A stretch of 64,000 bases of DNA from positions 1 through 64,000 of the forward strand of contig JBEWZL010000156.1 of the NCBI GenBank assembly GCA_045837725.1, written 5' to 3'. The notes below the pieces were generated by a model, which worked only from the letters and a program-made list of their open reading frames with translations, had not been told where the DNA came from and did no database searches. Position 1 is the stretch's first letter. Each line of letters opens with the position of its first letter. Of the stretch, positions 1,782 through 46,632 are shown in pieces. Source of the DNA: Vermamoeba vermiformis (Eukaryota). The position numbers were made by a program, and so were the translations under genes.

Positions 1782-2224
1782 TCCTTCAGATAGTCAATTA
1801 GTCCTACTTTACCTAAGCAAAAAACTCGAGTCATTTTTACCAAGGTATTTTGATAGTCGATCGTTGTTGTATTTGCAGTTGGAAATTTGTTAAAAATTAA
1901 ACCCCAACAGAAGCGTTAAAGCTGTAGAAGGCAATAGGATTATTACTGCGAGCACGTTGAAATGGCTTTTTGATGAATCTAGAATCACGATCGTGAAATC
2001 AAATCACAGCAAAATTAAATGGCACGTGCAAAAACCTTTGTAAATTAAATCAGGACTTCTAACCGGTCACAACGTGTCAGAAATAAACCAGAATAATGTC
2101 ATTACTGCCGATGCCGGCATCGTTAACAATTTTAGACGGATTTTCAGTTGAAACACCCCGGAGGTCAAAAACCCTCTGCATCCAGATTGTAGTAAAAGAA
2201 GTGCAAACGTAATAAGTTTAATAA

Positions 2225-2975
2225 AAGGGGAGAGAACGGAGACGCCACCCCCAAACCCAAAAACAAACCCCCCCGCCCCCCCGCCCCCCCCCGCCGGCCC
2301 CCAGCAGCACAGAGGAGGCCGGCGGCCGGGCAGGGAGGGGGGGGCCCGCCCGGGCGGGCGGCCAGGGGGGACCGGGGGGGGGGGGGAGGGGGGGAGGGTG
2401 GGGAAAGGGGGGGCGGGCAGGCCCGGAAGGAGGGGAGCGGCCCGCCCGCAGAAAGGGAGCCCGCGCAGGGCCAGGGCCGAGGGGGGGCGGGGCCGGGCCG
2501 GAGAGCCCGAAAGAACGGGGAGGGCGCGACCAGGAGGGCCGGGGGGGGGGCCAGGCCGCGGGAAGAGCCCGGGCCGCCGGGAGCCCGCGGGCCGGGGAAC
2601 GGGCAGCCGGGCGGGGCGGCCTGCGCGCCCCGGGGGGAGCCGACAAGGAAGGGCCCAGAGACTCGGCCGGGCCAGCGACAGGGAGGCCGCCCTCGCGCAA
2701 GCCGGGGGAGGGGGGCGGGGAGGAGAGGGCACCTGAAGGGGGGGGAGGAGCGGGGGCGAGCGGGGGCCGGCCGCCGGGAGGCCGAAAGGGGGAGAGGAAA
2801 GGAAGGGGAGGGGCGGGGCCGGCCGGGGGAGGCGGGGGGGGGAGAGGGGAGGAAGGCAAACAGAGAAAAAAAGAAGGGAGGGGAAGGATGCGGGGGGAAA
2901 AAAAAAGGGGCAAGGAGAGGACTCTCCGGGACCGAACGGAGGAAAAGAAGGAAAGAAGAATAAAGGGGAGAGCGA
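2225..2975. other. Extremely G/C-rich, T-depleted low-complexity tract; probable low-quality sequence
   Basis: Abrupt switch from AT-rich DNA to poly-G/poly-C runs with almost no T on the + strand. The overlapping ORFs are Pro/Gly/Arg low-complexity. Confidence 0.6.
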
Positions 2976-3135
2976 CGTTAATTTTATTTGACGATTGCCA
3001 CACAAACCCTTCGCAACGCGTCTTGTGTGAATCTTCTCTTTATTTGCTAGTGCGTACACTTTACTACAAGATTCACCAAACAATCGGAAACAAAATCGCT
3101 CCAGTTGTTACCATAACAATTAATTGATCGCATCA

Positions 3136-6100
3136 ATGAACAATAAATCGCCGGTACGTACTTTTAGTTCTGAGGAAATTTTAAATCGAATTCTCTTTTA
3201 ATTAAAAAGAGAGAGAATAATTTAGGAGTGTCTTGTTAATTCATGATTTATTGCGTTGTCGTTAATTATATTTAATTTAGATTTTTACGTTGCGATATCC
3301 CTACGACACTGTTGGACCTCTCGTTCGTGTCCAGAGCCTGAGCGTTGCCCTCAACGATAAAATCTATTATTTTCGCGGTTCTATTTCAAGGGACGAAGTA
3401 ACAACCGATGTGTCTTGTGGCACGATCAGAGTATTTGACACGACATCCGGCACTTGGGCTCAGATCGAGACAACGCCGCCCCGGCCAAAATGCAAAAGCA
3501 CTAAATTGCGGGGTGTGACAGTAGGCACAGATATTTGGGTGTTGGAAGGAGATAACTGGCATGTTTTTGACACGATCCAAAGCAGATGGCGCGACACTTC
3601 AATTCAACTCGACCAGCACGCAGCCGAACATTACGCAATCGCAGTTGTAAAGGATAATATTGTATACTACGACAATGCACATGGCTTCGAAGATATGCAC
3701 GTGGTCATTCTCGATACCAATGCCAAGATCTTACACTCACATCCGGAAGGCTATGGCAATCTCCCGTATGATCGCCGCAATCCACTTATGATAGCACTCA
3801 ATGAGGACATTATGTTCCTATACGCACCTTATGCAAGTTACGAGGACGAAAGAGCCAAGAAGAACGGCGAAATGTTCTTCTACGACATGAAGCAAGGCAA
3901 GTGGGCTCGTGCCGACACTTCCAAGAAGCTGAAACGAATGCAAGAATATGTGTTATATATTGGCCGGATCGAGCACCTACTCTTGTTCATGTCGAAAAGA
4001 TCCATTTGGACTTTGGACTTGCGCACCTTTGCTTGGAAAGCGCATGCAATCAACGTGGATGGCACCACTAAAGGCCTCGTCATTCGTGTGGCAACCTTGC
4101 TAGGTGACAAGATCTACTGTTGCATGAGCAACGGAAAGGTGTGCGTCATTGACATTACAGGCATTAAGACTGCACGAAGTCAACAGATCATGACCGGCAT
4201 CATCGAACGGGCAAAAGTGCTGCTGGCCGCTATTAAGGTAAATCAAGTATTATTAATATGGGGCGTTAGTTAACACGTAATAGCGCCCTAATACAGCCGT
4301 TGATGAGTTCAGTGCCGAGCCAATCCTGGTGGACACAAAGCTTGACGTTGTCAAGTTGAACGATATTAAAAGCTACAAAGAAATCCCTGCAGACTTCAAG
4401 TCATTATTTCCGCTCATCGGCCCCAAGACCATCGTGTCCAACACCGTCCCCGAGCCATCAGACACAGTGCGCATGCACAAGAACTACCTCCACTACCTGA
4501 CTCTCGCATGGTCAAATCACTTCTCAGTGGTGTTGTCACCAGACATTATTTTCTTCACGATCTTGTGCGAGATTGCAGATGTGATCTTGGGTGATCCAGA
4601 TTCATATCGACATTTGTTCACTGACTCGACTGAAAAGAAAGAAATTATGTCGCTGACTCACGGTGTTGAGCACATCGATGTTACTCAGCTAATACACGGT
4701 AAGCCATAGTTTTACTTGATAATTGTAGTCAGTAGCAGCCTCTAAGAACACATAATAGGTATCGCGAAGAACGTGCCAATTGACTCGAGTATTTTCACTG
4801 CAAACTTCACGAGCAGTACAGCAGACTCACAACTCGCCATTCAGTCTGCTTTCTGCGAAACAATGTCTGCATATTATTACTACGTTTGTGGACTCTGTGG
4901 TATTCCGCGCATCAAGGTCCTTGGCACGAAAGAAGACTGGCAAATGATTGAACAAAAAGTTCATCGCATGCGCACCGAAGTGTTCAGCCTAGACACCACC
5001 ACGACCAAGAAACTGAGCACGTATCTTTCAAAGATCGAGTCACAAGTGCGCAAGATTTACACGACAAGAGACCCATCGTTCTGGAAAGACATGTTCTACA
5101 TTGACGACTGTCAGAGCGGTCACGTCGCTGTAGTCACTGGGTGGATTGCGATGTTTTATGTAGAGCACGAGGCTGTTAGAAAGGACGGGCACACAATGTA
5201 CTCGGGCAACGACTTTTACAACTACAAAGCTCACATCTCAACTGTCAAGTGGAGAAACATCGAAACAGAGCGGCAGTTTGAGCTCAAGTGTGGTCTTTTC
5301 TCGAGCAGAATTGTTAGTGGCACAAATGAGCTTGACACAAAGTATCCGTGGCTTGAACCATCATTCAGTCACGTGATCGTCGAGACTGACGGCTCAGGCA
5401 AGATGTCGCCCGAACGTTTCAAAAAGTACATTGAAACTTTAGACGGAGGAGACCGCTCTCTCATGGAATCATTCTACGAAGTGTGGAAAGACAATCCAAT
5501 GGAGTTCGTGAAAGGCGACAAAGAGCTGTCATTCCGTTATCAGCTTGTTGGAATGCAAATTGATGCGTGGAAAGAACAGTACAAGAAGACTGGAAAAAGC
5601 TTACCAAGCATCGATTTAACGAAAGGAAATTGTGGCCAAGCATTAAGTTCTAATAGAGGCTACAAAGACCTGAACAAACCCGCTGCCGAATCACTCGCGA
5701 ACAAGATCTGCGAGTACTTGGCACTCGATCGACATGTCAAAAGTGTCAAATTATGCAATGGCAGAGAGGCAGCAGTACCGCTTGAAGAAGCAATAGTCAA
5801 GTCACTGATTGGCTATTCAGCACTCGAAGAACTCAGTCTGGCTTGCATCACCACGCAGCTTTACGATTTGTTGGCACAGCTGCTAGTGCACCCTGAGTGC
5901 AGATTAAAGACGCTCAAGATTGGCGGTGACGACGGCGAAGTATTTCGCCAACCAGCACCCAATCTTGTCAACTTTGCAGAGGCGTTATTGCAGACAAAAG
6001 CTCCATTAGAAACGCTCTTCATGATTCCATTCTCGGATGTTCGATTAGCACACTCAATCAGCCATTTATGCACCATGGCTAATGGTCTGAAGAAGTTCAA

Positions 6101-7037
6101 GTTGGGTTCAAAGTACATTGGGTCACTCGTCAATGTGCCCAGGATGATTTTATTGCATGGAGTTGTCACATCAAAAACAATAGAGGAAATTACTTTCTTT
6201 GATATCGGACAACAAGAGGTGATTCAAGACAATAAGATGCACTTTGCTCATGCGCTAGATAACGAGTTGATGGAGTTCATCGTTACCAATTTGCAGCAAA
6301 ACACTTCACTGAAGGTCATTAGCAACCTTCGCGTGTTATTCAAAGAAGAACAAATGTCACGAGTTCTGAGAATTCCAACATTACGAGAGATAGACACATT
6401 TCGGACAAAAGACTTGTCGTTCTTAACCGTGACAAGACAGCTCAAAAAAATCAAAGTCACCTTGACCGATTGCACTACCAAGCATGCGGAGTACTTGCGA
6501 GAGTTTTTGGCCGATGAAAATTGCACGCTAAAAGAGCTGAATTTATCACATAGTGAGTTTAATGCACACCCTGAGGCTATAACTATTATTGCTCGTGGCT
6601 TCTTAAACAACAAATCACTACAAGCGATCACTTTGGACAGTATCCAAACACACCAAAAAGTTGATGATGAATTGTGTGAATTGCTGACACAGTGGATTGA
6701 ACGAGAAGACTGTAGTTTGGTCCAAATTAGCTTTTATGATCGAATTTTTGAACACACTCACGTGCAAAGAATTCTCACGGCACTGCACTACAACAAAATC
6801 ATGACCAGCTTTAAGGCGTCAATGAAGATAGCCGCCTTTGGAGAGTGCCAATGTCTCATGGACCTTCTTGCCAATAATACGACATTGACTAGTGTAGGAA
6901 CCTTTTCAATGCCTTGGTCACGTCAGTCTTTGAACGTTGCTGATGAACAACTGGAGGCTTTGAAAGCTGCAGTCAAGGCCAGAACTGACTTGAAGTGCAC
7001 ATTTGATTCGGATTTCATTAAGAACCAATACTACTAA
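3136..7037 (+). CDS. Kelch-repeat + DUF4419 + RNI-like LRR fusion protein (about 1220 aa)
   Basis: Exons about 3136-3153, 3281-4237, 4284-4698, 4759-7037 joined by GT-AG introns. Kelch-like blades (VALNDKIYYF, VTVGTDIWV, FDT..W); DUF4419 motifs AWSNHFSVVLSPDI and CGIPRIKVLGTKEDW; C-terminal LxxLxL repeats (CTLKELNL, NKSLQAITL, NTTLTSV). Confidence 0.75.
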
Positions 7038-15893: not shown

Positions 15894-18800
15894 ATGCATA
15901 TTAAGAAAGTAATTATCAAGGGTTTCAAATCCTACTCCTCGCAGTCGGATTTCGATACTTTTCACCCTAGAACCAACGTAATCGGTATGTATATATTTAA
16001 TATAGGCTTCATATAATTTTTGAGTCGATCTGGCAAGTTTTCTAATTTTTGTTTTAAATCAGTTGGTAAAAACGGAGCTGGTAAATCAAACTTTATTGAT
16101 GGTAAGCATTTAATGTGCTATATTAGCGCTCGATTTAATATTAAACGATTTCTTCTAGCCATCAGATTCGTTCTTAGCACAGACAAGTATCGCAAGCTCC
16201 GATCTGAAGACAGAAAGGCTTTGTTGCACGTAAGTCCTATTGATTTAATATACGCGAGTAAGTACTAATATCATCTGATGCATAGCACGGTACTAAAGAT
16301 ACCGTCTTGTCTGGCTATGTCGAAATCCACTTTGATAACAGCGACAAGCGTTTGCCGGTAAGAAATCAATTCCTTAAAAATATGTTAAATATTATGGAGG
16401 TTTTATTGTTGGATTAAACGCTAACTGCATCTGATTCTAAGGTGGATAGCACTGAAGTCATCTTGCGAAGAAACATTGGTTTGAAGAAGGACGAATATTT
16501 TTTGAACAACAAACACGTCTCGTAAGTACATTATTGATAAATTGGCCTTTGAAAATTTGATTTTGTCAAATCTGAGTTGGCGCCAAAAAACCTAAATCCG
16601 CCAAATAATCTCCTAAAATATCCTAATTAATTCCCTATTTTTTTAGAGCTGAGGACGTTATGAACTTGTTCGAATCCGCTGGTTTTTCGCGCTCTAACCC
16701 TTACTACATTGTCATGCAAGGTCAAGTCCAAGCTCTTGCCAAAATGAAGGCCTCTGAACGCCTTGAACTCTTGAAAGAAGTCGCTGGTACCAACGTGTAC
16801 GAAGAGCGTCGCGCTGAGAGTTTGAAGATTCTGCAAGACACTGAGAGCAGAAAAAAGAAGATCGAGGAAGTTCTTGCGTACATTGAAGAACGTCTTTCTG
16901 AGCTCGAATCTGAAAAGAACGAATTGAAGGAATACCAACAACTTGACAGAGACCGTCGTGCGTTGGAGTACTCCATCTACGAATCTGAAAAGCGAGCGTG
17001 CGATGAACAACTTGCTGAGCTCGAAGAATCACGTGACACTGATGCCACCAAAGTAACACAATTCCATCAACAAGTGCTGAGCAGACACGACGCTGTCAAG
17101 GCCGCGGAGAAGGAGCTTAAGGCATTGTTGGCCGATCAAAGCAGAGCTACTGCCGATAAGGATCTGTACCAAGGCGAGAAGCAAGAGTACATCAAAGCCA
17201 AGGCCAGATTGGAACTTGAACTTAAGGACTGCCAAGACATCATTGCTGCTCACGAGAACAGACGCAAAGACATCTCCAACGAACTGAAGGACGTGCAAAA
17301 GTCCATCAAGAAGACCAACTCAGACCTCGACAAAGCCCGTCCTAAGTACCAAGACGCCGTCAAAGAAGAGGCTGACTTGAAGGAGAACTTGAGCTCGAAA
17401 GAACGCAAGGTCCAAGAACTTTATGCCAAGCAAGGTCGTAACGCCCAGTTCTCGTCCAAGAAGGCTCGTGACGACTGGATCAAGAAGGAAGTTAAAGAAC
17501 TCGAAGCTGCTGTCAACACTAAGAAGAAGCAATTAGAAGCTGTCCAAAAGGAGCTCGAAGAAATCGACGAGCGTCTTGGCAAATCAAAGTCTAAGTCAGA
17601 CGACAGAACCAAGGGTCTTCAAGAGCGCAAGGAAGCTTTGGACAAATTGAACGACGAATACAACGACCTCAAGAACAAGCGAGACGAATTCGCTAACCGC
17701 AGAAAGGACTTGTGGCGCCAAGAAGCTGAGAGCGAGAGCGAGACTTTGCGCCTTCGCACTGAATTATTGAAGGTCGAACGTCAATTGCAATCAACTGTCA
17801 GCAAAGAAGTCAACCAGGGTCTTAGCTCCATCAGAAGAATCGCTGGAGAACAAAAGATCAGCGGTGTCTACGGCCCTATGATCGAGTTGTTTGACGTCGA
17901 TGAAGAATATATGGCCGCTGTTGAAGTCACTGCCGGCAACAGTCTGTTCTACGTTGTAGTTGACACTGACAAGACTGCCACGACTTTGTTGGACGAATTG
18001 AACAAGGAGCGCGCTGGTCGTGTTACGTTCATTCCTTTGAACCAGCTTGCCACTAAGGAGCCCAAGCACGCTGCTTCTTCATCAGCCACACCTTTGACTG
18101 ACATTCTCACTTACGACAAGAAGACCTACGAGAAGGCATTCAACCAGATTTTCGGCAAGACTTTGCTTTGCCAGACCCTCGAAGTTGGTGCTCAAATCTC
18201 CAAGTCTCACAACATGAACTGCGTCACCCCGCAAGGAGACCAAATCAACACTAAGGGTGCTTTGTCCGGTGGTTTCTACGACGTCCGTGTGTCCAGACTG
18301 AAGGCCATGAAGACCATTAAAGAGTACCGCGAGAAGTTGCGTGGCATTACTGAGCAATCAAAGAAACAGAAGAAGCAAATTGCTGACTGTGATCAACGCA
18401 TCAACCAGATCCTCGGTGAAATGCAAAAGATCGACACTGAGCGCGCTAAGCAACACGAGGCTTACGAGACTTTCGACACTAAGGCTAGATCTAGTGCCAA
18501 GAAGATGTTGGAAGACCAAGAGAAGTTGGAGCAGAAACAACGCGAGTACAACGAGCAACAAAGCTCTATTACACAGTTGGAAGAGTCTATCAAGGCTCTC
18601 CGTGCTGAATTAGGAACTGAATTGCTCGACAAGCTCACTGCTGCCGAACAAAAGCAACTGCGCGAGCTCAACGACGACATCACTAAGTTGAACGAAGAGC
18701 TCATCAAGGTCTCGCAACAACGCGCTCAATTGGAAGGTCAAAAGAACGAGTTGGAGAACTTGCTGCAAAACTTTTTGTTGAAGAGACAAGAAGAGTTGGA

Positions 18801-20111
18801 AGGTGTTTTGAACTCACTCGAGATCAGCGAAGAACAAACACGTTTGAAGCGCATTCAATCCGACTTGGACGGTGTCAACGCCTCACTTGCTGACATTAAC
18901 AAGCGCCAATCAGAGTTCGAAAGCAAGATTGAAGACAACAACAAGGCTATCAACGATCTCAAGAACAGAATCGAAGATCTTAAGAAGAGCGAGAGCGATG
19001 CCCAAAAGAAACTTCAAAACGAGTCTAAGAACATGGAACGATTGTTGAACAAGCGAAGTATGCTGTTGCAGAAGCGCGAAGAGAGCTTGAAGAAGATCCG
19101 CGACATTGGCTCGTTGCCCACTGAAGCCTTGGAGAAGTTCCGCGAACTCGAACTTCAGGATATGCACGTGCAATTGCGTGACATCAAGAACAACTTGAAG
19201 AAGTACAGCTCCGTCAACAAGAAGGCCTTGGACCAATACGTCAACTTCACTGAGCAACACGAAGACTTGTCTAACAGAAAGAACGAGTTGGATGCCAGCA
19301 AGGGCGCCATTGACGAGCTCGTCGAAGAGTTGGATCGCAAGAAGGACGAAGCTATTGAAAGAACTTTCAAGGGAGTTGCCAAGTTCTTCAGCGAAGTCTT
19401 TTCAGAACTGACTGGAGGTGGCCGTGCCAACTTGATTATGCAAAAGGTAAGTCCTAAGTGGCTCTTATGATCGTTGTTTATGAGTGCTAACGTTATTGTT
19501 GAACAGCCTAAAGGTGAAAAAGAACTCGAAGGCCCCGAGAGAATTCGAAGCTACCGTGGTGTTGAAGTTCAAGTCGCATTCAACCCTAACGCCCCTGAAT
19601 ACCAAAACATGTCTCAATTATCAGGTACGCATGGCTACTAAGTAACCATAGTGACAAGGCTTCGTATTAATCCTGTCTTATTCTCGTAGGTGGTCAACAA
19701 TCATTGGTCGCACTTGCTTTGATCTTCGCCATTCAACGTTGCGATCCTGCACCGTTCTATGTGTTTGACGAAATCGACCCTGCCCTCGACGATAACCACC
19801 GACATGCAGTCGCTGTGATGATTAAGAAGCAATCGAAGGTCATCCAATTCATCACCACTTCGCACAGACCTGAGCTCGTGTCCGCTGCCCACAAGTGCTA
19901 CAAGATCACGTTCACCAACAGAGTCAGCAACATTGTGTCCGTTATGACTGAAGAGGCCTTAGAGCTCATTAAAGAGGTCGAAGAAGAAGAGGACGCGCAA
20001 CAAGAGCGCTCTCGATCGGTCAATGTCAGTCGAACGAGCAGAAACAGATCCGTTGAAGCTGCGCAGTCTGAAGAAGAAGAGGCTGAAGGCGGTGAAGCTA
20101 GCGATGAATAA
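15894..20111 (+). CDS. SMC3: Cohesin subunit SMC3
   Basis: MHIKKVIIKGFKSY, Walker A GKNGAGKSNF, acetylation patch GLKKDEYFL, FSRSNPYYIV, hinge GRVTFIPLN, signature LSGGQ, Walker B PAPFYVFDEID. Large exon about 16648-19446. Confidence 0.97.
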
Positions 20112-25963: not shown

Positions 25964-28102
25964 TTTTGAAGCCGAATCTGGCATCTGGAAATCGCCAAAG
26001 ACTTTCGCTCACGTGGTATGCAGTTAAATATGATAACATAAATGCAGGTCTAACATTGTTCAGGATTCGGACGCAAAGAAGGAGTTGAGAATTCTCAAGA
26101 ACGAAATTTCCAACCAACCTCCCCCTCGAAGACCAAAAAGGTCGTTTGAACGAGGGTGTTTGAACCAGTTCACTTAATTTCAATCTTTTCTCGAGAAATC
26201 ACATGGAAACCACCCCCTGAGGTCACTTACCATATTTAGAACCATGTCTGCGATAAATACAAACTTCGCTCGCTCGATTCATTCATCAAAATCAAAGCAG
26301 TTGATAAAGCAACAAATTAACTCAAAACAAAACAAAAAGGTTATATCAATCTTATTTTAACCAAAGAACCCACTTTGATCGTTATTATTATCAATTGAAA
26401 AATGTCCGATAAGAAGACCAAGCCGCACGTCAGCTTAGTTGTCATTGGTCACGTCGACTCTGGCAAATCTACCACCACTGGTCACTTGATCTACGAATGT
26501 GGTGGTCTCAACGAGCGTATCTTGCGTAAGTATAAAACAATACAATCTGATCCGATCCGTCAAATATCTAACGAATTGAACCCTGCAGAACAAATCGAAG
26601 AAGAGGCTCGTCGCTTGAACAAGTTGTCATTCAAGTTCGCGTTCATCATGGACAAGTACAAGTCTGAACGTGAGCGCGGTGTGACGATCGATGCCAAGTG
26701 CTGGAAGTTCGACTCGAACAAGTACACTTTCACCATCATTGACGCCCCTGGTCACCGCGACTTCATCAAGAACATGATCACTGGTACTTCACAAGCCGAT
26801 GTCGCCATGTTGGTCGTGTCTTCTGCCAAGGGAGAGTTCGAGGCAGGTATCTCCGAGCAAGGCCAGACCCGTGAGCACGCATTGTTGGCGTACACTTTGG
26901 GCATCAGACAAATGCTCGTGTTGATCAACAAGATGGACTCGACCACCACCAACTACAGCCAAGAGCGCTACGAAGAGGTCAAGCGCGAAATCTCCGCTTA
27001 CTTGAGCAAGGTTGGGTAAGTTTTTTTGATTGACATTTTGATGACACGTGAAAAATATTTGATGACACGTGTCAAATTGTTGTCGTTGGTGTCAAGTTAC
27101 TGACATGTTCTATGTTTAGATACAAGCCCGAGATGATCACTTTCGTGCCAGTGAGTGGCTGGACTGGTGACAACTTGCTCAAGAAGTCCGACAAGTTGCC
27201 CTGGTACAAGGGTCCCACGCTCTTGGAGGCACTCGATGCCTTGAAGGAGCCCAAGCGTCCCAACGACCGTCCATTGCGTATTCCAGTGCAAGACGTGTAC
27301 AAGATTGGTGGTATCGGCACAGTGCCCGTCGGACGCGTCGAGACAGGTGTGCTCAAGATCAACGACCAGATCTTGGTGGCACCTGGCAACTTGACCAGCG
27401 AAGTCAAGTCCATTGAAATGCACCACCAATCAGTCACTGAGGCCACTCCTGGTGACAACATTGGCTTCAATGTGCGTGGTCTTTCAGTGAAAGATTTGCG
27501 TCGTGGAGCAGTCGTTGGTCACCTCAAGAACGAGCCTCCCGCTCAAGCCGTCGACTTTGTGGCTCAAGTCAGTAAGTGTCACGAACAAACACATCTTCAA
27601 TACGCACTTGTTTCAGTGAACTAATGATTCATAATCTTTGCAGTCATCATGAACCACCCTGGTGAGATCCGCGAAGGTTACGCCCCCGTGCTCGACTGCC
27701 ACACCAGTCACGTGGCCTGCAAGTTCTCAGAGTTGTTGGCCAAGTTCGACAAGCGCACTGGCAAAGAGATCGAGTCTGCCCCCAACGTCAAAGTGCTCAA
27801 GAAGGGTGACTCGGCCTTGGTCCGCTTGGAGCCCACGAAGCCAATGGTCGTTGAAGCGTTCACTGAATTCGCTCCTTTGGGTCGATTCGCAGTGCGTGAC
27901 ATGAAGCAAACAGTGGCTGTCGGTGTGATCAAATCCGTGAACAAGAAGTCCAACACTGTCGAGAAGAAGAAGTGAGAGCTCATTCGCTTGTTCTGCTCCT
28001 CTCTTGTGTGCGGAGATGGAGACGTCATTAGTATTATGATTGATCACACAGCTTGTAAATAGTGCCAAATAAAACAAACAAATCGTTTCCATCAAAGCCG
28101 TT
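25964..28102 (+). repeat. Left arm of a 2.1-kb inverted duplication (promoter, EF-1alpha-like gene and 3' UTR)
   Basis: Near-identical to the reverse complement of 34441-36555, including about 430 bp upstream and about 125 bp downstream of the CDS. Confidence 0.95.
26402..27975 (+). CDS. EEF1A: Divergent elongation factor 1-alpha, copy 1
   Basis: [66 protein letters not shown]. Introns 26526-26588, 27016-27119 and about 27572-27642. Confidence 0.95.
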
Positions 28103-28196
28103 GTGCGTGACCATTCAACTGATCTATGGCAATAATATTGTCCTCTGTATTAAAAATGGAGAAGCTGTTCATAATTAATCGGCCGTCGGTTGGCTG

Positions 28197-29297: not shown

Positions 29298-29907
29298 ATG
29301 TCTTTCAACATGAATATGAACGTCCCGGGCATGTCCGTTGGTATGAATATGCCTAATCAACCTCAATATGGCCAACCCGGCATGAATGTCAACATGGGAA
29401 TGCCTGGCATGTCCGTTAATATGGGCGTGCCTCAGCCTTACGGATACCCTCAACAACCCGGCATGAACATGCAGATGGGCATGCCTGGCATGTCTGTTAA
29501 TATGGGTGTCCCTCAGACTCACGTCGTCGTTCAAGAGCATCATCATGTCGTGCACCAGCCAGTTCAAACTACCGTTGTTACAACGCAATCCGTCGGATCT
29601 GTAACTTGTCCTGTATGCACTGGAAAGGGTGGTTTGGGTAAGTCATAACTAGTACTATACTATTGTACCGACTAGAAGCTCATATTTAATTTGTTTAGGC
29701 ACTTTTGGTCCGTGCAACAAGGGCGACATGCATTTCAAGAGAACTTGCCCGTTCTGCGATGGCATGGGTACTGCGCGCGCAGGATCACGTGCTTGTCATA
29801 TGTGCCAAGGCAAGGGTGGATTAGGAACGTTTGGTCCTTGCGATTTTAAGGACATCCACTTCAAATCTACTTGCAACGTTTGTAATGGCAAGTGCCACAT
29901 CTACTAA
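29298..29907 (+). CDS. Met/Gly/Pro/Asn-rich repeat protein with four CxxCxGxG-type zinc-binding motifs (no J domain)
   Basis: Repeated MNxNMGMPGMSV. After the intron at 29638-29698 the protein carries CPVCTGKG, CPFCDGMG, CHMCQGKG and CNVCNGK, with a duplicated GLGTFGPC..D.HFK.TC unit. Confidence 0.85.
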
Positions 29908-31882: not shown

Positions 31883-32453
31883 ATGTCAGAGGAGAGTGTG
31901 GAGATTTGTGTGATGAACAGCGTTACCGCCCTCAATCAGCATCAACTCTGTCTTGAAGTCGTGAGGGGAATTTCATTTGAACCACCTTCAACAGGGCTTT
32001 GAATAGTCCACTGGTTCGTAGCGGCATCATGATCAGTGCCGAGGGGAATTTCATTTGAACCACCTTCAACAGGGCTTTTGAATAGTCCACTGGTTCGTAG
32101 CGGCATCATGATCAGTGCCGAGGGACACCTGTTCGTTTTTACGACAACCTCATCGGAGACTTGTTTGCCGCGGACTCGCCTGGTGGAGAACATCGAAGTG
32201 TCAGCAAGAGTGCTGTGTCCATTGGCACCGCATGAAGTGCCCTTGTACTGGCACGGTAGGACGAAGAGCAGCTCTCGCGATGAGTGGTCAGAGCGGTGGT
32301 TCGCTTGCTGTGCACGCCAAGGGCACTGTCACATTGTAGCACTGGCATGGTTCGCAGCGCTCGAAGTTACCGTATGTCAATGCCGTTGACACGTGTCAAA
32401 TCTAACTTATGCGCTAGATCTTGCCATGGTTCCCGCGCCTGCAGATCCATTAA
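31883..32453 (+). pseudogene. Disrupted gene with a degenerate SWIM-like zinc finger
   Basis: The frame from ATG 31883 is broken by a tandem duplication. The downstream frame has FACCARQGHCHIVALAW; intron at 32372-32417. Confidence 0.45.
31963..32119 (+). repeat. 78/79-bp tandem duplication
   Basis: 31963-32040 and 32041-32119 are identical except for one extra T in copy 2. Confidence 0.95.
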
Positions 32454-32615
32454 ATATTCAACATTAACTAACACTTTTACTTGTAGGATGATCGATGAGT
32501 GCCTTGGCCTTATAATGCGTTGCACGTTCTTGGTGACGGTTTTCAATGAATTTGAAAAAAAGTTGAATCAGTAAAGAATTGGATTTTATTCTTCAAAACA
32601 TTTCCACCAAGTCTT

Positions 32616-33043
32616 CTACTGTAGATAAAGGGTCTTAATACCCGACAAAAATTGTCTATCATCGAATTTTAGCGATGCAGAAATGAATTCTTGCGGGGGC
32701 AATTGTTGAGTGCATCTACACCAAAAATGGGTTAAACATCAATAAGAAGATAAGGTTAATCTTACTTCGTGCAGATCATTATATCCATGTTCAGCTTATT
32801 GCCGTCAATTTTGCCTACATCCACTTGGACCAATTGTTTTTGCTCCGCTTCTCGAATGCTAGTAGAATTTAGATTGAGCCCTTTAATAGGACTCTTACCG
32901 CCTATGACATCCACTGAGAGGGTCAAGCGCTTCTCTTTGAAAGAATAAGAGCTTGATTCTTGGTGGACATGGAGATCCTCGATCTTCAACTGACGTTCGA
33001 AGTTACCGATTTTCATCCAAGTGTGTTCGCACATGGTGCTCAT
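32616..33043 (-). CDS. Orphan zinc-clasp beta-hairpin protein A (125 aa)
   Basis: MSTMCEHTW ... MICTK|CTQ with intron 32716-32765; splicing completes the CxxC. Confidence 0.7.
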
Positions 33044-33202
33044 TGCTTGCGGTCTACTTGAATAATTGTTCGCAAGCAAAATTCAATATTGGACCGTTTT
33101 TTTTCTATTCTTTTCGCAACTTTCTGCGACGTTTTCCAAAAGAATTAACCCCAGCAGTAAAATGCCAATTTTCAGTCAGTATCATATATAGTTATCAAGA
33201 GA

Positions 33203-33517
33203 ATGTTGAAAAAGTTCGGTAAAGCGTTCACCAAGGCCGCGCACCAAGTTACTGGCCACGAGCATCGAAAGAATAAACGAAGAGCGAGACAGGTCCAAGT
33301 CATTCGCCAGCAAAATGAGCAGGTGCAAGTGTTTACCGTAACACTTCAAACCGAAGAAGAGGTTCCCGATGTTGTCAATCCTCAAGAGCTCCGCGAATGC
33401 CCGGCTGATCAACATTGTTGGAAACCGATCGAATCTGCCGTCACAATCGAGTCTAATGGTACTCAAATAACCGTGACAGGCAATATATGTATACATTGTT
33501 TACGAATGAAAGAATAA
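33203..33517 (+). CDS. Orphan zinc-clasp beta-hairpin protein B (104 aa)
   Basis: Single ORF containing CPADQHCW ... ICIHC, with AATAAA at the stop. Confidence 0.65.
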   Translation: MLKKFGKAFTKAAHQVTGHEHRKNKRRARQVQVIRQQNEQVQVFTVTLQTEEEVPDVVNPQELRECPADQHCWKPIESAVTIESNGTQITVTGNICIHCLRMKE

Positions 33518-33573
33518 ACTTCGTATTGATTTAAATAGAGAAATTTAAATTTGTTCATTTGAATTCTTTAACG

Positions 33574-34380
33574 ATGTCGTGCACCACAACCACAGGAGCT
33601 CATAAATATGAAGTAAAAGGCTACAGACATACGAAAATATCGTATTCATCTCAAATAACAACCAAAGAATTAATAACAATAGAAGAATGGCGTTCTAGTT
33701 CCAGATGGTTCGGATTGCAAAAGGTCAGAGAATACTCTCGCTGGACTCGCAATACAACTGTTAGTTACAGCGTTGAAAAAGATGCATCATCTACCATCGC
33801 CATAATTGAGTGTAGTGCTTGCAAGCATCAATTAGAAGTAAGATCCGTTTTTATTCTTTTTCCTTGATCTTACGTTGACTTCACTAGTTCGATTCCACTC
33901 ACGTTAAAGAATTCTACAACTGTCTAATCAGCAATCCTGATATCGCACAAATGATTACTTCGGATACTCCTGTCACGAATACAACCCTCAGTAACAGATC
34001 CACATCTGGTTGTCTAGCCACGCGTTGTCAAAGACACGTATTTGATGTGAATACTGCTAGCACTATAGATATGCGCTACGTCGAAGCGAATGTCACACAA
34101 GCTCTAAAGATGGATTCAAACGATAACTACGCATTGGTATGTGAAAAATTATCTCGCTACTAATTAGTAATTATCGTTCTTAATTTCGAGGAATAATATT
34201 TAGGTGTGGCTGAATGCCCCAACAACTAAAGTGACGCAAGACGTTAAAGCCTCGGTAAAGTTGTTCCGATGTACAGTTTGCGGCCTCTATTCAACACCAT
34301 GCCTGTCAAAAAAACAGCTCGAAGAACTCACGCTGATGATTCCTGGTGGAGATTCGTTGCTCAAAAGAATTACAATGTAA
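33574..34380 (+). CDS. Orphan tandem zinc-clasp beta-hairpin protein C (229 aa)
   Basis: Exons 33574-33837, 33888-34136 and 34204-34380, all phase 0. CTTTTGAHKY...ECSAC and CQRHVF...RCTVC; AATAAA near 34421. Confidence 0.75.
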
Positions 34381-34440
34381 TTTAAGTTTCACGATCAGGA
34401 AAGCGTAAATTTTTAACTGCAATAAAATACTTACGATGGA

Positions 34441-36555
34441 AACGGCTTTGATGGAAACGATTTGTTTGTTTTATTTGGCACTATTTACAAGCTGTGTGAT
34501 CAATCATAATACTAATGACGTCTCCATCTCCGCACACAAGAGAGGAGCAGAACAAGCGACAAAATGAGCTCTCACTTCTTCTTCTCGACAGTGTTGGACT
34601 TCTTGTTCACGGATTTGATCACACCGACAGCCACTGTTTGTTTCATGTCACGCACTGCGAATCGACCCAAAGGAGCGAATTCAGTGAACGCTTCGACGAC
34701 CATTGGCTTCGTGGGCTCCAAGCGGACCAAGGCCGAGTCACCCTTCTTGAGCACTTTGACGTTGGGTGCAGACTCGATCTCTTTGCCAGTGCGCTTGTCG
34801 AACTTGGCCAACAGCTCTGAGAACTTGCAGGCCACGTGACTGGTGTGGCAGTCAAGCACGGGGGCGTAACCTTCACGGATCTCACCAGGGTGGTTCATGA
34901 TGACTGCAAAGATGATGGGTCGTTAGTTCACTGAAACAAGTATGTATTGAAGATGTGTTTGTTCGTGACACTTACTGACTTGAGCCACAAAGTCAACAGC
35001 TTGAGCGGGAGGCTCGTGCTTGAGGTGACCAACGACTGCTCCACGACGCAAATCCTTCACTGAAAGACCACGCACATTGAAGCCAATGTTGTCACCAGGA
35101 GTGGCCTCAGTGACTGATTGGTGGTGCATTTCAATGGATTTGACTTCGCTGGTCAAGTTGCCAGGTGCCACCAAGATCTGGTCGTTGATCTTGAGCACAC
35201 CTGTCTCGACTCGTCCGACGGGCACTGTGCCGATACCACCAATCTTGTACACGTCTTGCACTGGAATGCGCAATGGACGGTCGTTGGGACGCTTGGGCTC
35301 CTTCAAGGCATCAAGGGCCTCCAAGAGCGTGGGACCCTTGTACCAGGGCAACTTGTCGGACTTCTTGAGCAAGTTGTCACCGGTCCAGCCACTCACTGGC
35401 ACGAAGGTGATCATCTCGGGCTTGTATCTAAATATAGAACATGTCAGTAACTTGACACCAATGACAACAATCTGACACGTGTCATCAAAATGTCAACCAA
35501 AAAACTTACCCAACTTTGCTCAAGTAAGCGGAGATCTCACGCTTGACCTCTTCGTAGCGCTCTTGGCTGTAGTTGGTGGTGGTCGAGTCCATCTTGTTGA
35601 TCAACACGAGCATTTGTCTGATGCCCAAAGTGTACGCCAACAGTGCGTGCTCGCGAGTCTGGCCTTGCTCGGAGATACCTGCCTCGAACTCTCCCTTGGC
35701 AGACGACACGACCAACATGGCGACATCGGCTTGCGAAGTACCAGTGATCATGTTCTTGATGAAGTCGCGGTGACCGGGGGCGTCAATGATGGTGAAAGTG
35801 TACTTGTTTGAGTCGAACTTCCAGCACTTGGCATCGATCGTCACACCGCGCTCACGTTCAGACTTGTACTTGTCCATGATGAACGCGAACTTGAATGACA
35901 ATTTGTTCAAGCGACGAGCCTCTTCTTCGATTTGTTCTGCAGGATTCAATCGTTAGACATTTGACAGAGCGGATCTGATTGTATTATTTTAACTCACGCA
36001 AGATACGCTCGTTGAGACCACCACATTCGTAGATCAAGTGACCAGTGGTGGTGGATTTTCCAGAGTCGACGTGACCAATGACAACTAAGCTGACGTGCGG
36101 CTTGGTCTTCTTATCGGACATTTTTCAATTCAAATTGGTTTTGTGAGTTGCTCTTTGGTTAAAATAAGATTGATATAACCTTTTTGTTTGTTTTTGAGTT
36201 GATTTGTTGCTTTATCAACTGCTTTGATTTTGATGAATGGATCAAGCGAGCGAAGTTCGTATTTATCGCAGACATGGTTCTAAATATGGCAAGTGACCTC
36301 AGGGGGTGGTTTCCATGTGATTTCTCGAGAAAAGATTGAAATTAAGTGAACTGGTTCAAACACCCTCGTTCAAACTCCTTTTTGGTCTTGGAGGGGGAGG
36401 TTGGTTGGAAATTTCGTTCTTGAGAATTCTCAACTCCTTGTTTGCGTCCGAATCCTGAACTATGTTAGACCTGCATTTATGTTATAATATTTAATTGCAT
36501 ACCACGTGAGCGAAAGTCTTTGACGATTTTCGGATGCCCAGATTCGGATTCAAAA
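34441..36555 (-). repeat. Right arm of the 2.1-kb inverted duplication
   Basis: Reverse complement of 25964-28102 with scattered substitutions and small intronic indels. Confidence 0.95.
34572..36121 (-). CDS. EEF1A: Divergent elongation factor 1-alpha, copy 2
   Basis: Same protein as copy 1 except the visible LKNEP/LKHEP change; same three intron positions. Confidence 0.95.
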
Positions 36556-40918: not shown

Positions 40919-43900
40919 ATGCAAAAGTGGCAACATTCCTCTGCGCCTTATAGAAAAGTTCGCCGAGTTCAGTTTGGAATCTTGGGCCCGGACGAAATTG
41001 TAAGTATTCATCGTTACGTATTCGAGTCATTTGCAGATCATCAATAACAACTAGAGACCAAAAATACGTGTGGAGAATTAACAGGCTGCAAGCCAATCCA
41101 CAACAATAAAAAAATTTCGATAAAAGCAGGAAACTGCTGTTCGCACTTCTCAAGTGAGTTGCTGCGTCGGCCAATCCTTGCATGTCAATATTAATTTTTT
41201 TAAACGGAAATATTGCACCTTGAAAACAAGATTTGTTTGAATTTTGTCGATCGTAGATTTGGAAGTTGTTAACTGATTTTATTTTTCATCGTTATAGCGG
41301 CAATTATCCGTATGCGAAATTGTGCATCCAGAGACCTTTGAAAATGGAAAACCGAAGCAAGGAGGCTTGGCAGATTTGCGTATGGGAACCATTGCCAGAG
41401 AGTACCGCTGCATTACCTGCGAAGGAGATAGCAACGAATGCCCTGGACATTTTGGTCATATTGAATTGGTGAAGCCGATGTTCCATATCGGCTTCTTGCC
41501 AACTGTACTCAAAGTACTGCGTTGTGTTTGCTTTTCTTGTTCAAAGTTGCTTGCTGACGAGGTACGATCTTATTACTCAATTGTATAGTACTTGGCGAGT
41601 ATAACATACTAATGTCACTATTTGACGTGCAGAGCGATGATGCTTATCAAAATGCTTTGAAGATCCGCAACCCTCAAGACAGACTTCGCGCCATGTATGA
41701 TATCTGTAAAAATAAGCGTGTTTGCGAGGGCGCTCAGCAACAAGAAGAGAATCAAGATAACAATGAGGAAAATGAAGATTTGGAAGGCAACAAGAAAAAG
41801 AAAAAGCCACACAACGGTTGCGGTGCTGAACAACCCAAGGTCAGCCGCGACGGATTAAAAATTTCAATCGAATATAAAAAAGAACAAGAAAATGGAGAAG
41901 AAAAAAGAAAAGTTTTATCTGGCGAAGAGGTAAATACTCGGTGACATAGTTTTTACGCAGATCGTGATCTAACAAATGCTTTTAGGTGTACAATATTTTA
42001 AAACAGATTTCTGACGACGATTGTCGTGCGATGGGCTTTGACCCTCGCTTCTCGCGTCCAGATTGGATGCTTGTCACAGTTTTACCTGTGCCACCTCCCC
42101 CTGTTCGTCCTAGCATTGTCATGGACTCTGCGCGAAGAGGTGAAGACGACTTGACGTACAAATTGGCTGATATTGTCAAAGCCAACCAAATGTTGCGAAC
42201 TAAAGAAGAGAGTAACGCTCCTGCACATATCATCAAGGAATTCGCTCAGCTCTTGCAATTCCACGTCGCGACATTTGTGAACAACGAAATTCCCGGTCAA
42301 CCTCAAGCCACTCAAAGAGGAGGCCGTCCGTTGAAGACGATCAGTCAGCGTCTGAAGGGCAAAGAAGGTCGTGTCAGAGGCAACTTGATGGGCAAACGTG
42401 TCGACTTTTCGGCTCGTTCTGTCATTACTGCCGACGCCAACCTTCATTTGGATCAGCTTGGTGTGCCTTTGTCGATCGCCAAGAACTTGACTTACCCTGA
42501 AACAGTCACTCCCTTCAACATTAAGAGGTACGTTTAACTGTCATTATATCGGCATTATTGCTTGGTACTAATTTATATGTAGGCTACACGAGCTTGTTGA
42601 AAACGGCCCTGACGATCACCCTGGTGCCGTCTACGTCATTCGTGACGACGGTGTCAGAATCGACTTGCGTTTCGTCAAGCGAAGAAGTGAAGTTCACTTG
42701 AACTACGGATACAAAGTCGAACGTCACGTGCAAGATGACGACGTGGTCATTTTCAATCGTCAACCTTCTTTGCACAAGATGTCTATGATGGGTCATCGTG
42801 TCAAAGTTATGCCCTTCTCGACTTTCCGTCTGAACCTTTCTGTCACTACTCCTTACAACGCCGACTTCGACGGTGACGAAATGAACATGCACGTGCCTCA
42901 GTCTTTGGAGACAAAAGCAGAAATTTCCCAGATTATGATGGTCCCTCGTCAGATCATTACCCCTCAGGGTAACAGACCTATTATGGGTATCGTACAAGAT
43001 ACTTTGCTCGGCTGCGGTCTCTACACGAAGCGTGACACTTTCCTGGAGAAGGACGTCGTCATGAACATCTTGATTCTGATGCCCGACTGGGACGGCAAGA
43101 TGCCCACTCCTGCTATCCTCAAGCCAAAGCCTTTGTGGACCGGCAAACAGATCTACAGTGTTATCATTCCCAAGATCAATCTTCACAGATTCTCTGCTAC
43201 TCACAGCAGCAAGGACATGCAGGAGACATCGCCCGCTGACACTGAAGTCATCATTCAAGATGGTGAAGTTCTTGCCGGAATTTTGGATAAGAAGGCTGTC
43301 GGTAACGTCGAAGGAGGTCTCATTCACACAATTTGGCTCGACTACGGTCCTGAAGCTGCAAAGATGTTCTTCTTCCTCACCCAACAACAAGTCAACTACT
43401 GGTTGCTGCACCACGGCTACACCATCGGTATCGGTGACACTATTGCCGACGAGAATACTATGGCTTCGATCAAGAAGACTATTACACAAGCCAAAGAAAA
43501 GGTGCAAGAATTGATCATTCAATTGCATCAAGGCGCTTTGGAGTCTAAGCCTGGTATGACACTGATGGAGTCCTTCGAGTCCTCTGTCAACAACGAGTTG
43601 AACAAGGCCAGAGACGATTCTGGTAACAGTGCCCAGCGCTCTTTGTTGCGCTCCAACAACATTAAGAACATGGTCGACATCGGCTCCAAGGGTTCTTTCA
43701 TTAACATTTCACAAATGATTGCTTGTGTCGGTCAACAGAACGTAGAAGGCAGACGTATTCCTTTCGGCTTCAAGCAACGAACCTTGCCTCACTTTGTCAA
43801 AGACGACTATGGTGTTGAAAGCAGAGGCTTCGTCGAAAACTCTTACTTGCGTGGTCTCACGCCCCAAGAGTTCTTCTTCCACGCTATGGGAGGTCGTGAA

Positions 43901-46632
43901 GGTTTGATCGATACTGCAGTCAAGACCTCTGAAACTGGTTACATTCAACGTCGTCTCGTCAAGGCTATGGAGGACGTGACAGTTACTTATGACGGTACTG
44001 TCCGAAACTCTTTGGGTCAAGTGCTTCAATTCCTTTACGGAGAAGACGGTATGGACGGTACCTACGTCGAGAAACAGAAGATTGAATGCATGCAAATGGA
44101 CAACAAGACATTCGATCGTACTTACCGCTATGATCTCGACTCCAATGATCTCTCGTTGGGTCAAGATATCCTCGACGAAGAAATCCTCGAAGAGACTCGT
44201 AACAAAGATGACGCTTTCTCCATCTTGGAGCAAGAGTACGAGCAGCTCAAACAAGACAGAAAGCTCTTGCGAGAAGTCATCTACAAGAACCAATTGGCCG
44301 TTAGTGACGAAGACTCGTGGGCTTTGCCTGTCAACTTGCGCCGCTTGTTGTGGAACACTCAACGCCAATTCGGTCCTGAGATCAAGCGTCCTAGTGACTT
44401 GCCTCCCACCGAAATTATCGAGAAGGTCAAGCTCTTGACTGACAAGCTGAAGATTATTCCTGGCTTGGGCGAAGACGAAGTTACCAACGAAGTTCAACGT
44501 AACGCCGTCTTGCTGTTCAACATCTTGGTGCGATCAATCTTCGCCTCCAAGAGAGTCTTGCGCGAGTACAGACTCGACCGAGAATCGTTTGATTACCTCT
44601 TGGGTGAAATCGAGAGCAAGTTCTCCAAGGCCATCGCACACCCTGGTGAAATGATTGGTGCCATTGCCGCTCAATCTGTCGGTCAATTGGTCACTCAGAT
44701 GACGCTCAACACTTTCCACTTTGCTGGTGTGTCTTCTAAGAACGTCACACTTGGTGTTCCTCGTCTGAAGGAAATTATCAACATTGCCAAGAACGCCAAG
44801 ACTCCCTCTATTTCAGTCTACTTGAAGCCTCATGCTGCTCGAGACTCTGAAGCTGCCAAGGGTGTCTTGTGTCGCTTGGAACACACCACGTTGTACAAGT
44901 TGACTGAATCCACTCAGATCTACTACGATCCGGATCCTCTGAACACCGTGATCAAAGAAGACGAGGAACTCGTTCACTTGTACTACGACTTCCCTGGCGA
45001 AGAGCAAGATCCTCGCACTTTGTCCCCGTGGTTGTTGAGAATGGTTCTCAGTCGTGAAGCTTTGGCTGATAAGCGCTTGTCGATGTCCCAGATTTCTGAC
45101 AAGATTGAAGCTAACTTCACCAACGACTTGAACTGTATCTACTCTCACGATAACGCTGACAAGCTCGTCTTGCGTTTGCGCTTGAGACAAAACCCTGATG
45201 AAGAGGTAGATAAGACCGAAGAGGCCGATGACGAAGAGCTCATTCGTCAAATCGAAGCCAACTTGCTGCACGAAATGACTTTGTGCGGTATCAAGAAGAT
45301 CAACAAGGTCTTCATGAGAAAAGAGAAGCGCGGCTCTTACGACCAAAATGGTGCTTACAAGAAGGAAGAAGAGTGGGTGCTCGACACTGAAGGAAGCAAC
45401 TTGATGGAGGTCCTCAGCTGCCCTGACGTTGACACTCACCGCACCGTCTCTAACGACATTGTCGAGATTATTCAAGTGCTCGGTATTGAAGCCGTTCGTG
45501 GTGCCTTGTTGACTGAATTGCGTCGTGTCATTTCGTTCGACGGTTCTTACGTCAACTACCGCCACTTGGCTACTCTCGTGGACGCTATGACTGCTCCTGG
45601 TCACTTGATGTCCATTACTCGTCACGGTATCAACAGAACTCGTGCTGGTCCGTTGATGAAGTGCTCTTTCGAAGAGACTGTCGATATGCTTGTTGAAGCA
45701 GCGACATTCGCTGAGAAGGATTACTTGCGCGGTGTGTCCGAGAACATTATGTTGGGTAACCTCGTACCTGTGGGTACTGGCTACTTCGACTTGTTCTTGA
45801 ACGACAAGATGCTCAAGGACGCTATTGTCATTCCTCACGACAGACCTGGAGAGATGGACGTGTTCGATTACATTGACGAGAACCCTGGCTCACCTGGCAA
45901 CTTCGAGGCGCAGACCCCGTTAGTGAACATGATGTCGCCAGCCATGAGCCCTGGTCCCTCCGATATGTACTCGCCTTACGGTGCTGGTGCCATGTTCTCA
46001 CCGTACACCGGTGGCGCAATGTTCTCGCCCGCTCGTCCTGGATCTCCTTCCTCTCCCGCGTGGGTTACTGACGGCAAGGCTGGCTACTCACCCACTTCGC
46101 CCACTTACAGCCCAACCTCGCCCAAGTACAGCCCCACTTCGCCGAACTACAGTCCGACGTCACCTGGCTACAGCCCGACTAGTCCCAATTACAGTCCCAC
46201 TAGTCCCAGATACAGCCCGACGTCGCCTAACTACAGTCCGACGAGCCCGCGCTACAGTCCTACTAGTCCTAACTATAGCCCGACTAGTCCTCGTTACAGT
46301 CCCACGAGCCCGCGGTACAGTCCTACTTCACCCCAGTACAGCCCTACCTCGCCGCGCTATAGTCCTACAAGTCCGAGATACAGTCCGACCAGTCCACAGT
46401 ACAGTCCGACCTCACCTCGGTACAGCCCTACCTCGCCGCGCTACAGTCCCACTTCGCCCAATTACAGTCCCACTTCGCCGGGCTACTCGCCGTCGTCCCC
46501 GCAATACAGCCCGTCGTCACCTCAGTACTCGCCCTCGAGTCCTGCTTACTCTCCTGCGTAAGTTTTGTTCAACCGATAGCGGATCACGTCGTAGTAGTAC
46601 TAACGTTTTATTCTTGCAGTAAAAAGAAATAG
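40919..46632 (+). CDS. RPB1: RNA polymerase II largest subunit
   Basis: [44 protein letters not shown], bridge helix, TQMTLNTFH and heptad CTD. The last intron 46558-46619 gives ...SPAKKK*; the unspliced stop is at 46561. Confidence 0.99.
46085..46558 (+). repeat. RPB1 CTD: 22 complete YSPTSPx/YSPSSPx heptads
   Basis: 21-nt coding tandem repeat, counted from the translation. Confidence 0.97.

Follow-up and report, generated by a model that had tools for sequence, protein, structure and literature searches.

A conserved cluster of three small, apparently lineage-restricted genes in Vermamoeba vermiformis whose products carry a candidate metal-clasping Cys/His motif

Introduction

Among protein sites built from a few cysteines and histidines, structural Zn(II) is the commonest case, as in zinc ribbons and related clasps, and mitoNEET-type proteins hold a [2Fe-2S] cluster by 3Cys-1His ligation. 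Here we describe a cluster of three small nuclear genes, called A, B and C, that spans positions 32616-34380 of a 64,000-nucleotide stretch of Vermamoeba vermiformis DNA (contig JBEWZL010000156.1; this whole stretch is referred to as the window), and in whose products the pattern C-x(1-6)-H-x-[WYF]...C-x2-C is found four times, once in A, once in B and twice in C.

By layout, the described families closest to the single unit of B are presumably zf-CHC2 (PF01807, the zinc-binding domain of DnaG primase) and zf-CHCC (PF10276, NDUFS6-type). They share with B the ligand order Cys, His, CxxC and a short beta-hairpin between the two half-sites. The B unit, C-x4-H-x24-C-x2-C over about 35 residues, has the size and layout of a zinc ribbon, a likeness that applies to B only. 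In contrast, 53-81 residues lie between the half-sites in A and C, far more than in a ribbon, and for the trio as a whole the spacing appears to differ from that of these families, to which neither the genomic nor the protein context bears any relation. An hmmscan of the window's exons against Pfam-A at E<=10 returned nothing relevant, with neither zf-CHC2 nor zf-CHCC matched by B or by the exons of A and C, and at E<=0.01 the orthologues described below had no match at all.

For A and both units of C, a nearer parallel in proposed layout is the Mss4-like or beta-tent group (Yippee, Mis18, MsrB and CULT/cereblon), in which two half-sites separated by 45-70 residues hold one structural zinc and so clasp a domain that is all beta and roughly 100 residues in size. 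These proteins use two CxxC knuckles, whereas the first half-site of A, B and C is C-x(1-6)-H-x-aromatic, and no Pfam or PDB-profile match links the three proteins to the group. Pore-forming toxins of the aerolysin and haemolysin-stem type have only a few short amphipathic strands that contain Ser and Thr in common with A. They differ from all three proteins in that A, B and C have no long uninterrupted amphipathic hairpin, no significant periodicity and no secretion signal, and Pfam and PDB-profile searches found no homology to the toxins.

Results

The three genes recur together in a diverged relative

A metagenome scan with an alignment of gene A retrieved L001 (5356 nt) and L002 (2826 nt), a pair of contigs with 99% mutual identity that carry counterparts of all three genes (A', B' and C') in the order and orientation of the window. 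The trio is a conserved, co-inherited cluster in a diverged relative: at the protein level, the window and L001 share 45% identity for A, 56% for B (54/97; 55% in alignment A4) and 55% for C. Recurrence as a linked cluster had been put forward in the original prediction, made from the letters of the window alone, as a check on itself, and these contigs display it. The spacing of the genes has changed little, with 150 bp between A and B on L001 (159 bp in the window) and 60 bp between B and C (56 bp in the window), and the introns of 53, 48 and 50 nt on L001 lie at the same three positions as the window's introns of 50, 50 and 67 nt. Exon 3 is the best conserved part of gene C (58.6% over 58 aa, CxxC retained), the counterpart of exon 2 of gene C has C-x-H-x-F, and the A orthologue retains the exon 2 cysteine together with the PPQE stretch after it.

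The surroundings of the two clusters differ. None of the other open reading frames (ORFs) of at least 80 aa on L001 matches the window, and no EF-1alpha gene, of which the window has two, lies beside the L001 trio, within flanks that are short on L001 (roughly 0.46 and 3.1 kb). Since the trio is kept while its flanks differ, it is the trio and not the neighbourhood that is conserved. A fragment of a RhoGAP domain adjoins the A orthologue (L001 2252-2476, minus strand), and the window has none beside A. In the 20 or so bases just before the start codon of gene C, the window (33550-33573) and L001 (1245-1268) have a stretch in common within a spacer that has otherwise diverged, and this stretch may be a core promoter or an element of the 5' untranslated region.

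The genes are transcribed, spliced and under purifying selection

Contigs from run X5, which comes from a close relative with few differences per gene and whose label of "RNA?" is a guess, omit each of the predicted GT-AG introns precisely (32716-32765, 33838-33887 and, in gene C, the second intron of 67 nt). We read these contigs as complementary DNA because they are intron-less with exact borders. In gene A, one contig spans 32766-33042 fused to exon 2, and the joint 32715|32766 has a depth of 397; in gene C, the joint 33837|33888 and the skip of the 67-nt intron are both present. Gene B is covered by a contig over 33200-33440, and other X5 contigs cover exon 1 of gene C. Differences between the window and X5 in the coding sequences are mostly silent, with 9/12 synonymous (4/5 in A, 3/3 in B and 2/4 in C). 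A, B and C are real, transcribed and spliced protein-coding genes under purifying selection. The X5 contigs bear out the splice models of the original prediction to the base, along with its view of all three genes as real and expressed, and its statement that two of the four motif copies are completed by splicing alone holds as well.

The four Cys/His quartets are selectively conserved

All four copies of the motif sit where the original prediction had placed them. Across the whole window, six-frame ORFs of at least 40 aa contain the motif in unspliced form at two places only, namely B and unit 1 of C. In composition-preserving shuffles it arose in 0/20000 for A, 19/20000 for B and 98/20000 for C (at least two copies in 9/20000 for C), figures that overstate the significance, as the motif was defined after the data had been seen. 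A hydrophobic, strand-like stretch precedes every CxxC.

The comparison with L001 separates the motif residues sharply from other cysteines and histidines. All 16 of the motif Cys/His are kept, counting C135 of gene C, which the aligner placed opposite a gap and for which the relative's cysteine before K-H-R-F was read by eye, vs 2/13 of the other Cys/His (H19 and C100 of C; Fisher p = 2e-6). The aromatic residue after the histidine stays aromatic in 4/4 units. Within B, residues C66, H71, W73, C96 and C99 are invariant in 6/6 sequences, and C72 and H98 vary, which argues that the ligand set is C-H-C-C and does not include the neighbouring extra cysteine and histidine. Because all 16 motif residues are kept vs 2/13 of the others, a metal site is well supported, though unproven.

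Searches found few homologues and no named family

Each gene has a small number of homologues. Those of A are P0008 and P0009 at 99% and P0012 at 47%; those of B stand at 96, 88, 72 and 74%, in addition to the L001 orthologue; and those of exon 1 of C are P0010 at 94% and P0011 at 58%, the latter identical to the L001 exon. Both P0010 and P0011 retain C3, H10, Y12, H19, C80 and C83, with a spacing of 3-6 between the cysteine and the histidine. A HMMER search of exon 1 of A against 1.84 billion representatives gave two matches at E<=0.001, namely P0012 and P0013. We took P0013 to be a chance match, as it is a 552-aa repeat protein that aligns at E = 5.9e-4 over residues 25-56 only. Searches at the level of HMMER covered exon 1 of A only, and those with B and exon 1 of C were word-based, by which distant relatives could be missed.

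No broader search yielded a family. The best E-value in profile searches of PDB with three family alignments (A1, A2 and A3) was 0.65, and the best ESM Atlas scores were 0.80 for B and 0.83 for exon 1 of C, with no family attached. No relatives were found in a metagenome scan with the B profile, in scans of viral contigs with the C and B profiles or in a scan of prokaryote genomes with the B profile, and Rfam gave 0 matches over the whole window. Literature searches returned general papers on zinc fingers or nothing, which does not establish the family as unpublished. Judging from these searches, the trio appears to comprise new lineage-restricted families within a narrow group of related microbial eukaryotes, and the original prediction's remark that it recognised no named family is in keeping with the Pfam, PDB and HMMER searches, none of which matched one.

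The units resemble one another in the motif alone

The original prediction described four copies of one architecture in genes with little overall similarity. No similarity among the three genes is detectable: blastp among A, B and C found none, hhalign, run on the small alignments of the three families, assigned probabilities below 1%, and global alignment of the four units scored at z <1 relative to shuffles. The motif is present in all four units, which show no similarity beyond it. A and C also place their introns differently with respect to the motif. The adjacency of the genes, a pattern exclusive to the cluster and parallel conservation in every unit suggest a common origin; from these we infer that the four units may have arisen by tandem duplication, or else that they share a design, with homology unproven.

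Discussion

A proposed metal clasp in each unit

On balance, we think it somewhat more likely than not that the Cys/His quartets clasp a metal ion, most probably structural zinc. We hold any specific role for the clasped domains with much lower confidence. A, B and C are soluble, hydrophilic and probably beta-rich proteins, with one unit each in A and B and two in C, and the Cys...His-x-aromatic element and the CxxC knuckle are the residues under the strongest constraint in each unit. In the arrangement that we favour, these three cysteines and one histidine would bind a single structural ion, most likely Zn(II), so that the unit's first and last strands are fastened to each other. With its insert of 22 residues, B would form a CHCC clasp like that of a zinc ribbon; the beta domains closed off in A and C would be larger, at 53-81 residues. 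Such domains could act as small intracellular binding modules. Residues 1-32 of B (33203-33300) form a strongly basic segment with hardly any acidic residues, and its basic character is conserved across all six sequences. Through this segment B may bind nucleic acids or be targeted to the nucleus or to an organelle, in addition to the role of its clasped unit. The 159-bp gap between the divergent genes A and B is presumed to be a shared bidirectional promoter, from which the three genes may be co-regulated.

Several observations weigh against this reading. The units are alike in the motif alone, so that a common fold lacks support from their sequences. The spacing from the cysteine to the histidine differs even among orthologues (3, 4 and 6 in unit 1 of C; 1 and 2 in unit 2 of C), and at 1-6 overall it is looser than in classical zinc knuckles. 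AlphaFold2 models reached a mean predicted local distance difference test score (pLDDT) of just 46.2 for B, from an alignment of five sequences, and 48.7 for exon 1 of C, from three sequences, both unusable for geometry, and A and C were searched and folded as single exons, not as full-length spliced proteins. Raw reads from three further RNA-seq runs (X21-X23, about 13 million reads each) gave 0, 1 and 0 reads on 32350-34560. These runs carry the label of the organism with the best DNA match, whose presence in them is not shown, so they are no test of expression and add no support for it in that organism; either the genes are silent there or the window's owner is not the main content of those runs.

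The remaining structural predictions carry little weight in either direction. In both low-confidence models, DSSP assigned strands only within the units, which is weak evidence. A Foldseek search of the model of exon 1 of C against PDB gave 0 matches at E<=0.001, a result that is meaningless at that model's confidence. A complex prediction of exon 1 of A, exon 1 of C and B with 3 Zn, in which the alignments went unused, scored 0.00, short of a mark of 0.34, and counts neither way.

Other readings of the locus

Could the three genes simply be unrelated lineage-specific neighbours that share a loose motif recognised after the fact? Under this explanation their cysteines and histidines would serve different purposes, such as separate small zinc knuckles, lipidation of the N-terminal cysteines in A and C, or disulfides. 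The failure of every sequence and profile comparison among A, B, C and the four units speaks for it, as do the differing placement of the introns relative to the motif in A and C and inserts that range from 22 to 81 residues. It sits poorly with a motif that is absent from the window's other ORFs and rare in shuffles, with four units that, at 45-56% identity, preserve the whole quartet and its aromatic residue but not the other Cys/His, and with a trio that stays together where the flanks differ. We regard this explanation as unlikely, though it has the strongest claim among the alternatives. Somewhat less probable still is that the Cys3His sites bind an iron-sulfur cluster, or act as redox-active thiols, and that the trio is a small module for redox chemistry or cluster handling. 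The selective conservation of three cysteines and one histidine per unit fits such a site as well as it fits zinc, and the basic, acid-poor N-terminus of B could be an organellar presequence. However, no iron-sulfur family was matched in Pfam at E<=10, the spacing appears unlike that of the CDGSH and Rieske motifs, and a CxxC knuckle after a hydrophobic strand is generally typical of structural zinc sites. A more ambitious version of the metal-clasp reading, in which A, B and C form a co-inherited and co-regulated three-component hetero-complex of a new zinc-clasped beta fold, derived by tandem duplication and with a dedicated role (e.g., in stress, dormancy or defence), strikes us as decidedly improbable. 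Were it true, the Cys3His clasp common to the units would mark out a new fold family, its members having diverged past recognition by sequence.

The original prediction went further and proposed that a zinc site staples the base of a long amphipathic beta-hairpin, and that the three products may build a hetero-oligomer, either a beta-barrel pore or a beta-tube filament, that acts as a cytosolic defence or cell-death effector. Here the C-H-C-C metal site agrees with the retention of 16/16 residues, and the single long hairpin finds no support. The tight linkage of the genes, kept while their flanks differ, and the expression of all three in X5 are compatible with a multi-component assembly, and amphipathic strands occur locally in A, near residues 38-47 and 82-91. 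In contrast, the beta-amphipathic moment is not above that of 500 shuffles (z = 1.65, 0.08 and 0.74 for A, B and C), so the claimed alternation of polar and apolar residues is not borne out. Alternating stretches extend over 7-9 residues and include Asp and Lys, the best of them being 9-mers with charged residues, and the proteins are 21-26% charged, with no stretch long enough for a membrane-spanning hairpin. The inserts had also been called rich in Ser, Thr and Val, yet these residues make up fractions of 0.20, 0.21 and 0.31 in A, B and C, so that at most C qualifies. The insert of B is just 22 residues, the all-beta model of exon 1 of C consists of six short strands and not one hairpin (at its pLDDT of 48.7 it shows nothing either way), and neither Pfam nor PDB searches returned a family of pore formers. 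Nothing points to a pore, a filament or a cell-death effector, and we consider that proposal very improbable. The accompanying view that no signal peptide is present agrees with hydropathy, as the maximal mean over 19 residues is 0.65-0.91, with no hydrophobic segment. Least credible of all, to the point where we give it almost no weight, is that A, B and C are spurious ORFs or non-coding transcripts that yield no functional proteins. Their lack of a known family, the low language-model recognition scores (1960 and 1609) and the poor structure models would fit. Against this stand exact splicing that keeps all frames open, the 9/12 synonymous substitutions, and orthologues at 45-58% identity with intact frames and conserved intron positions.

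Significance

If the Cys3His clasp is real, the trio would add new families to the small beta domains stabilised by zinc, set apart by the unusual length of the inserts that separate their half-sites. In kind, the proteins look familiar, as small metal-clasped domains; orphan proteins with zinc motifs are common, and the trio bears on no long-standing question at present. The cluster has stayed intact across lineages that differ in about half of their residues, which is uncommon for eukaryotic genes that look unrelated, and it offers a compact, testable case of orphan genes maintained together.

Gene models and surroundings of the cluster

Coordinates of the three genes, their introns and their motif residues are collected in Table 1. 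The gap sizes of 159 bp (divergent) and 56 bp (tandem) given in the original prediction are exact. In gene A, the intron interrupts the CxxC itself, between C91-T-K and C94. A read-through or fusion of B and C was considered and rejected, as C is out of frame relative to B. Terminal repeats of the kind that flank mobile units were sought around the cluster, and none was found.

Table 1. Features of the A/B/C cluster in window coordinates, with the residues of each motif copy numbered by protein
Feature	Position	Strand	Description
Gene A	33043..32766 + 32715..32616	minus	2 exons, 125 aa
Gene A exon 1	32766..33043	minus	codons 1-92 plus 2 nt; from ORF and translation
Gene A first half-site	C5 33031-33029, H7 33025-33023, W9 33019-33017	minus	
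Gene A C91	32773-32771	minus	
Gene A intron	32716..32765	minus	50 nt, GT..AG, phase 2
Gene A exon 2	32616..32715	minus	C94 at 32714-32712, tail, stop TAG 32618-32616
Motif copy A	C5/H7/W9 ... C91/C94		insert 81 aa; CxxC crosses intron
A/B divergent intergenic region	33044..33202		159 bp
Gene B	33203..33517	plus	unspliced, 104 aa; basic N-terminal part and C-terminal unit
Gene B unit residues	C66 33398-33400, H71, W73, C96, C99 33497-33499	plus	
Motif copy B	C66/H71/W73 ... C96/C99		insert 22 aa
B-to-C spacer	33518..33573		56 bp
Gene C	33574-33837, 33888-34136, 34204-34380	plus	3 exons, 229 aa
Gene C exon 1 (unit 1)	33574..33837	plus	C3 33580-33582, H10, Y12, C80, C83 33820-33822
Motif copy C unit 1	C3/H10/Y12 ... 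C80/C83		insert 67 aa
Gene C intron 1	33838..33887	plus	50 nt, GT..AG
Gene C exon 2	33888..34136	plus	conserved C100; C135 34026-34028, H138, F140
Gene C intron 2	34137..34203	plus	67 nt, GT..AG
Gene C exon 3	34204..34380	plus	C194 34270-34272, C197 34279-34281, conserved tail, stop TAA
Motif copy C unit 2	C135/H138/F140 ... C194/C197		insert 53 aa; crosses exons 2 and 3

The cluster sits in a spacer of about 6.3 kb between the arms of an inverted repeat (26000-28103 and 34441-36518), which match at 95% identity along some 2.1 kb. A spliced EF-1alpha gene lies in each arm, the two being arranged tail to tail, and the stop of gene C lies 191 bp from that of the right-hand copy. The window's EF-1alpha appears to lack the insertion typical of animals and fungi, which makes a non-opisthokont protist likely.

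Within the same spacer, a 79-bp unit is repeated 2.1 times with a 98% match at 31963-32124, some 0.5 kb past the 3' end of gene A. The ORF at 29298-29648 (plus strand) encodes a repeat protein rich in Met, Asn, Pro and Gly, with tandem copies of an 81-nt unit at 29373-29523. A CPVC knuckle, possibly at an exon border, closes this ORF, which had no match in Pfam and may resemble the N-terminal part of LITAF/SIMPLE-like proteins.

Other genes of the window (2067-7037, 16627-19467 and 42572-46558) encode kelch-repeat, DUF4419, SMC hinge and RPB1 proteins. RPB1, with the heptads of its carboxy-terminal domain, occupies an uninterrupted ORF of 1329 codons, and such long intron-free ORFs beside genes with introns of 50-67 nt suggest an intron-poor protist genome.

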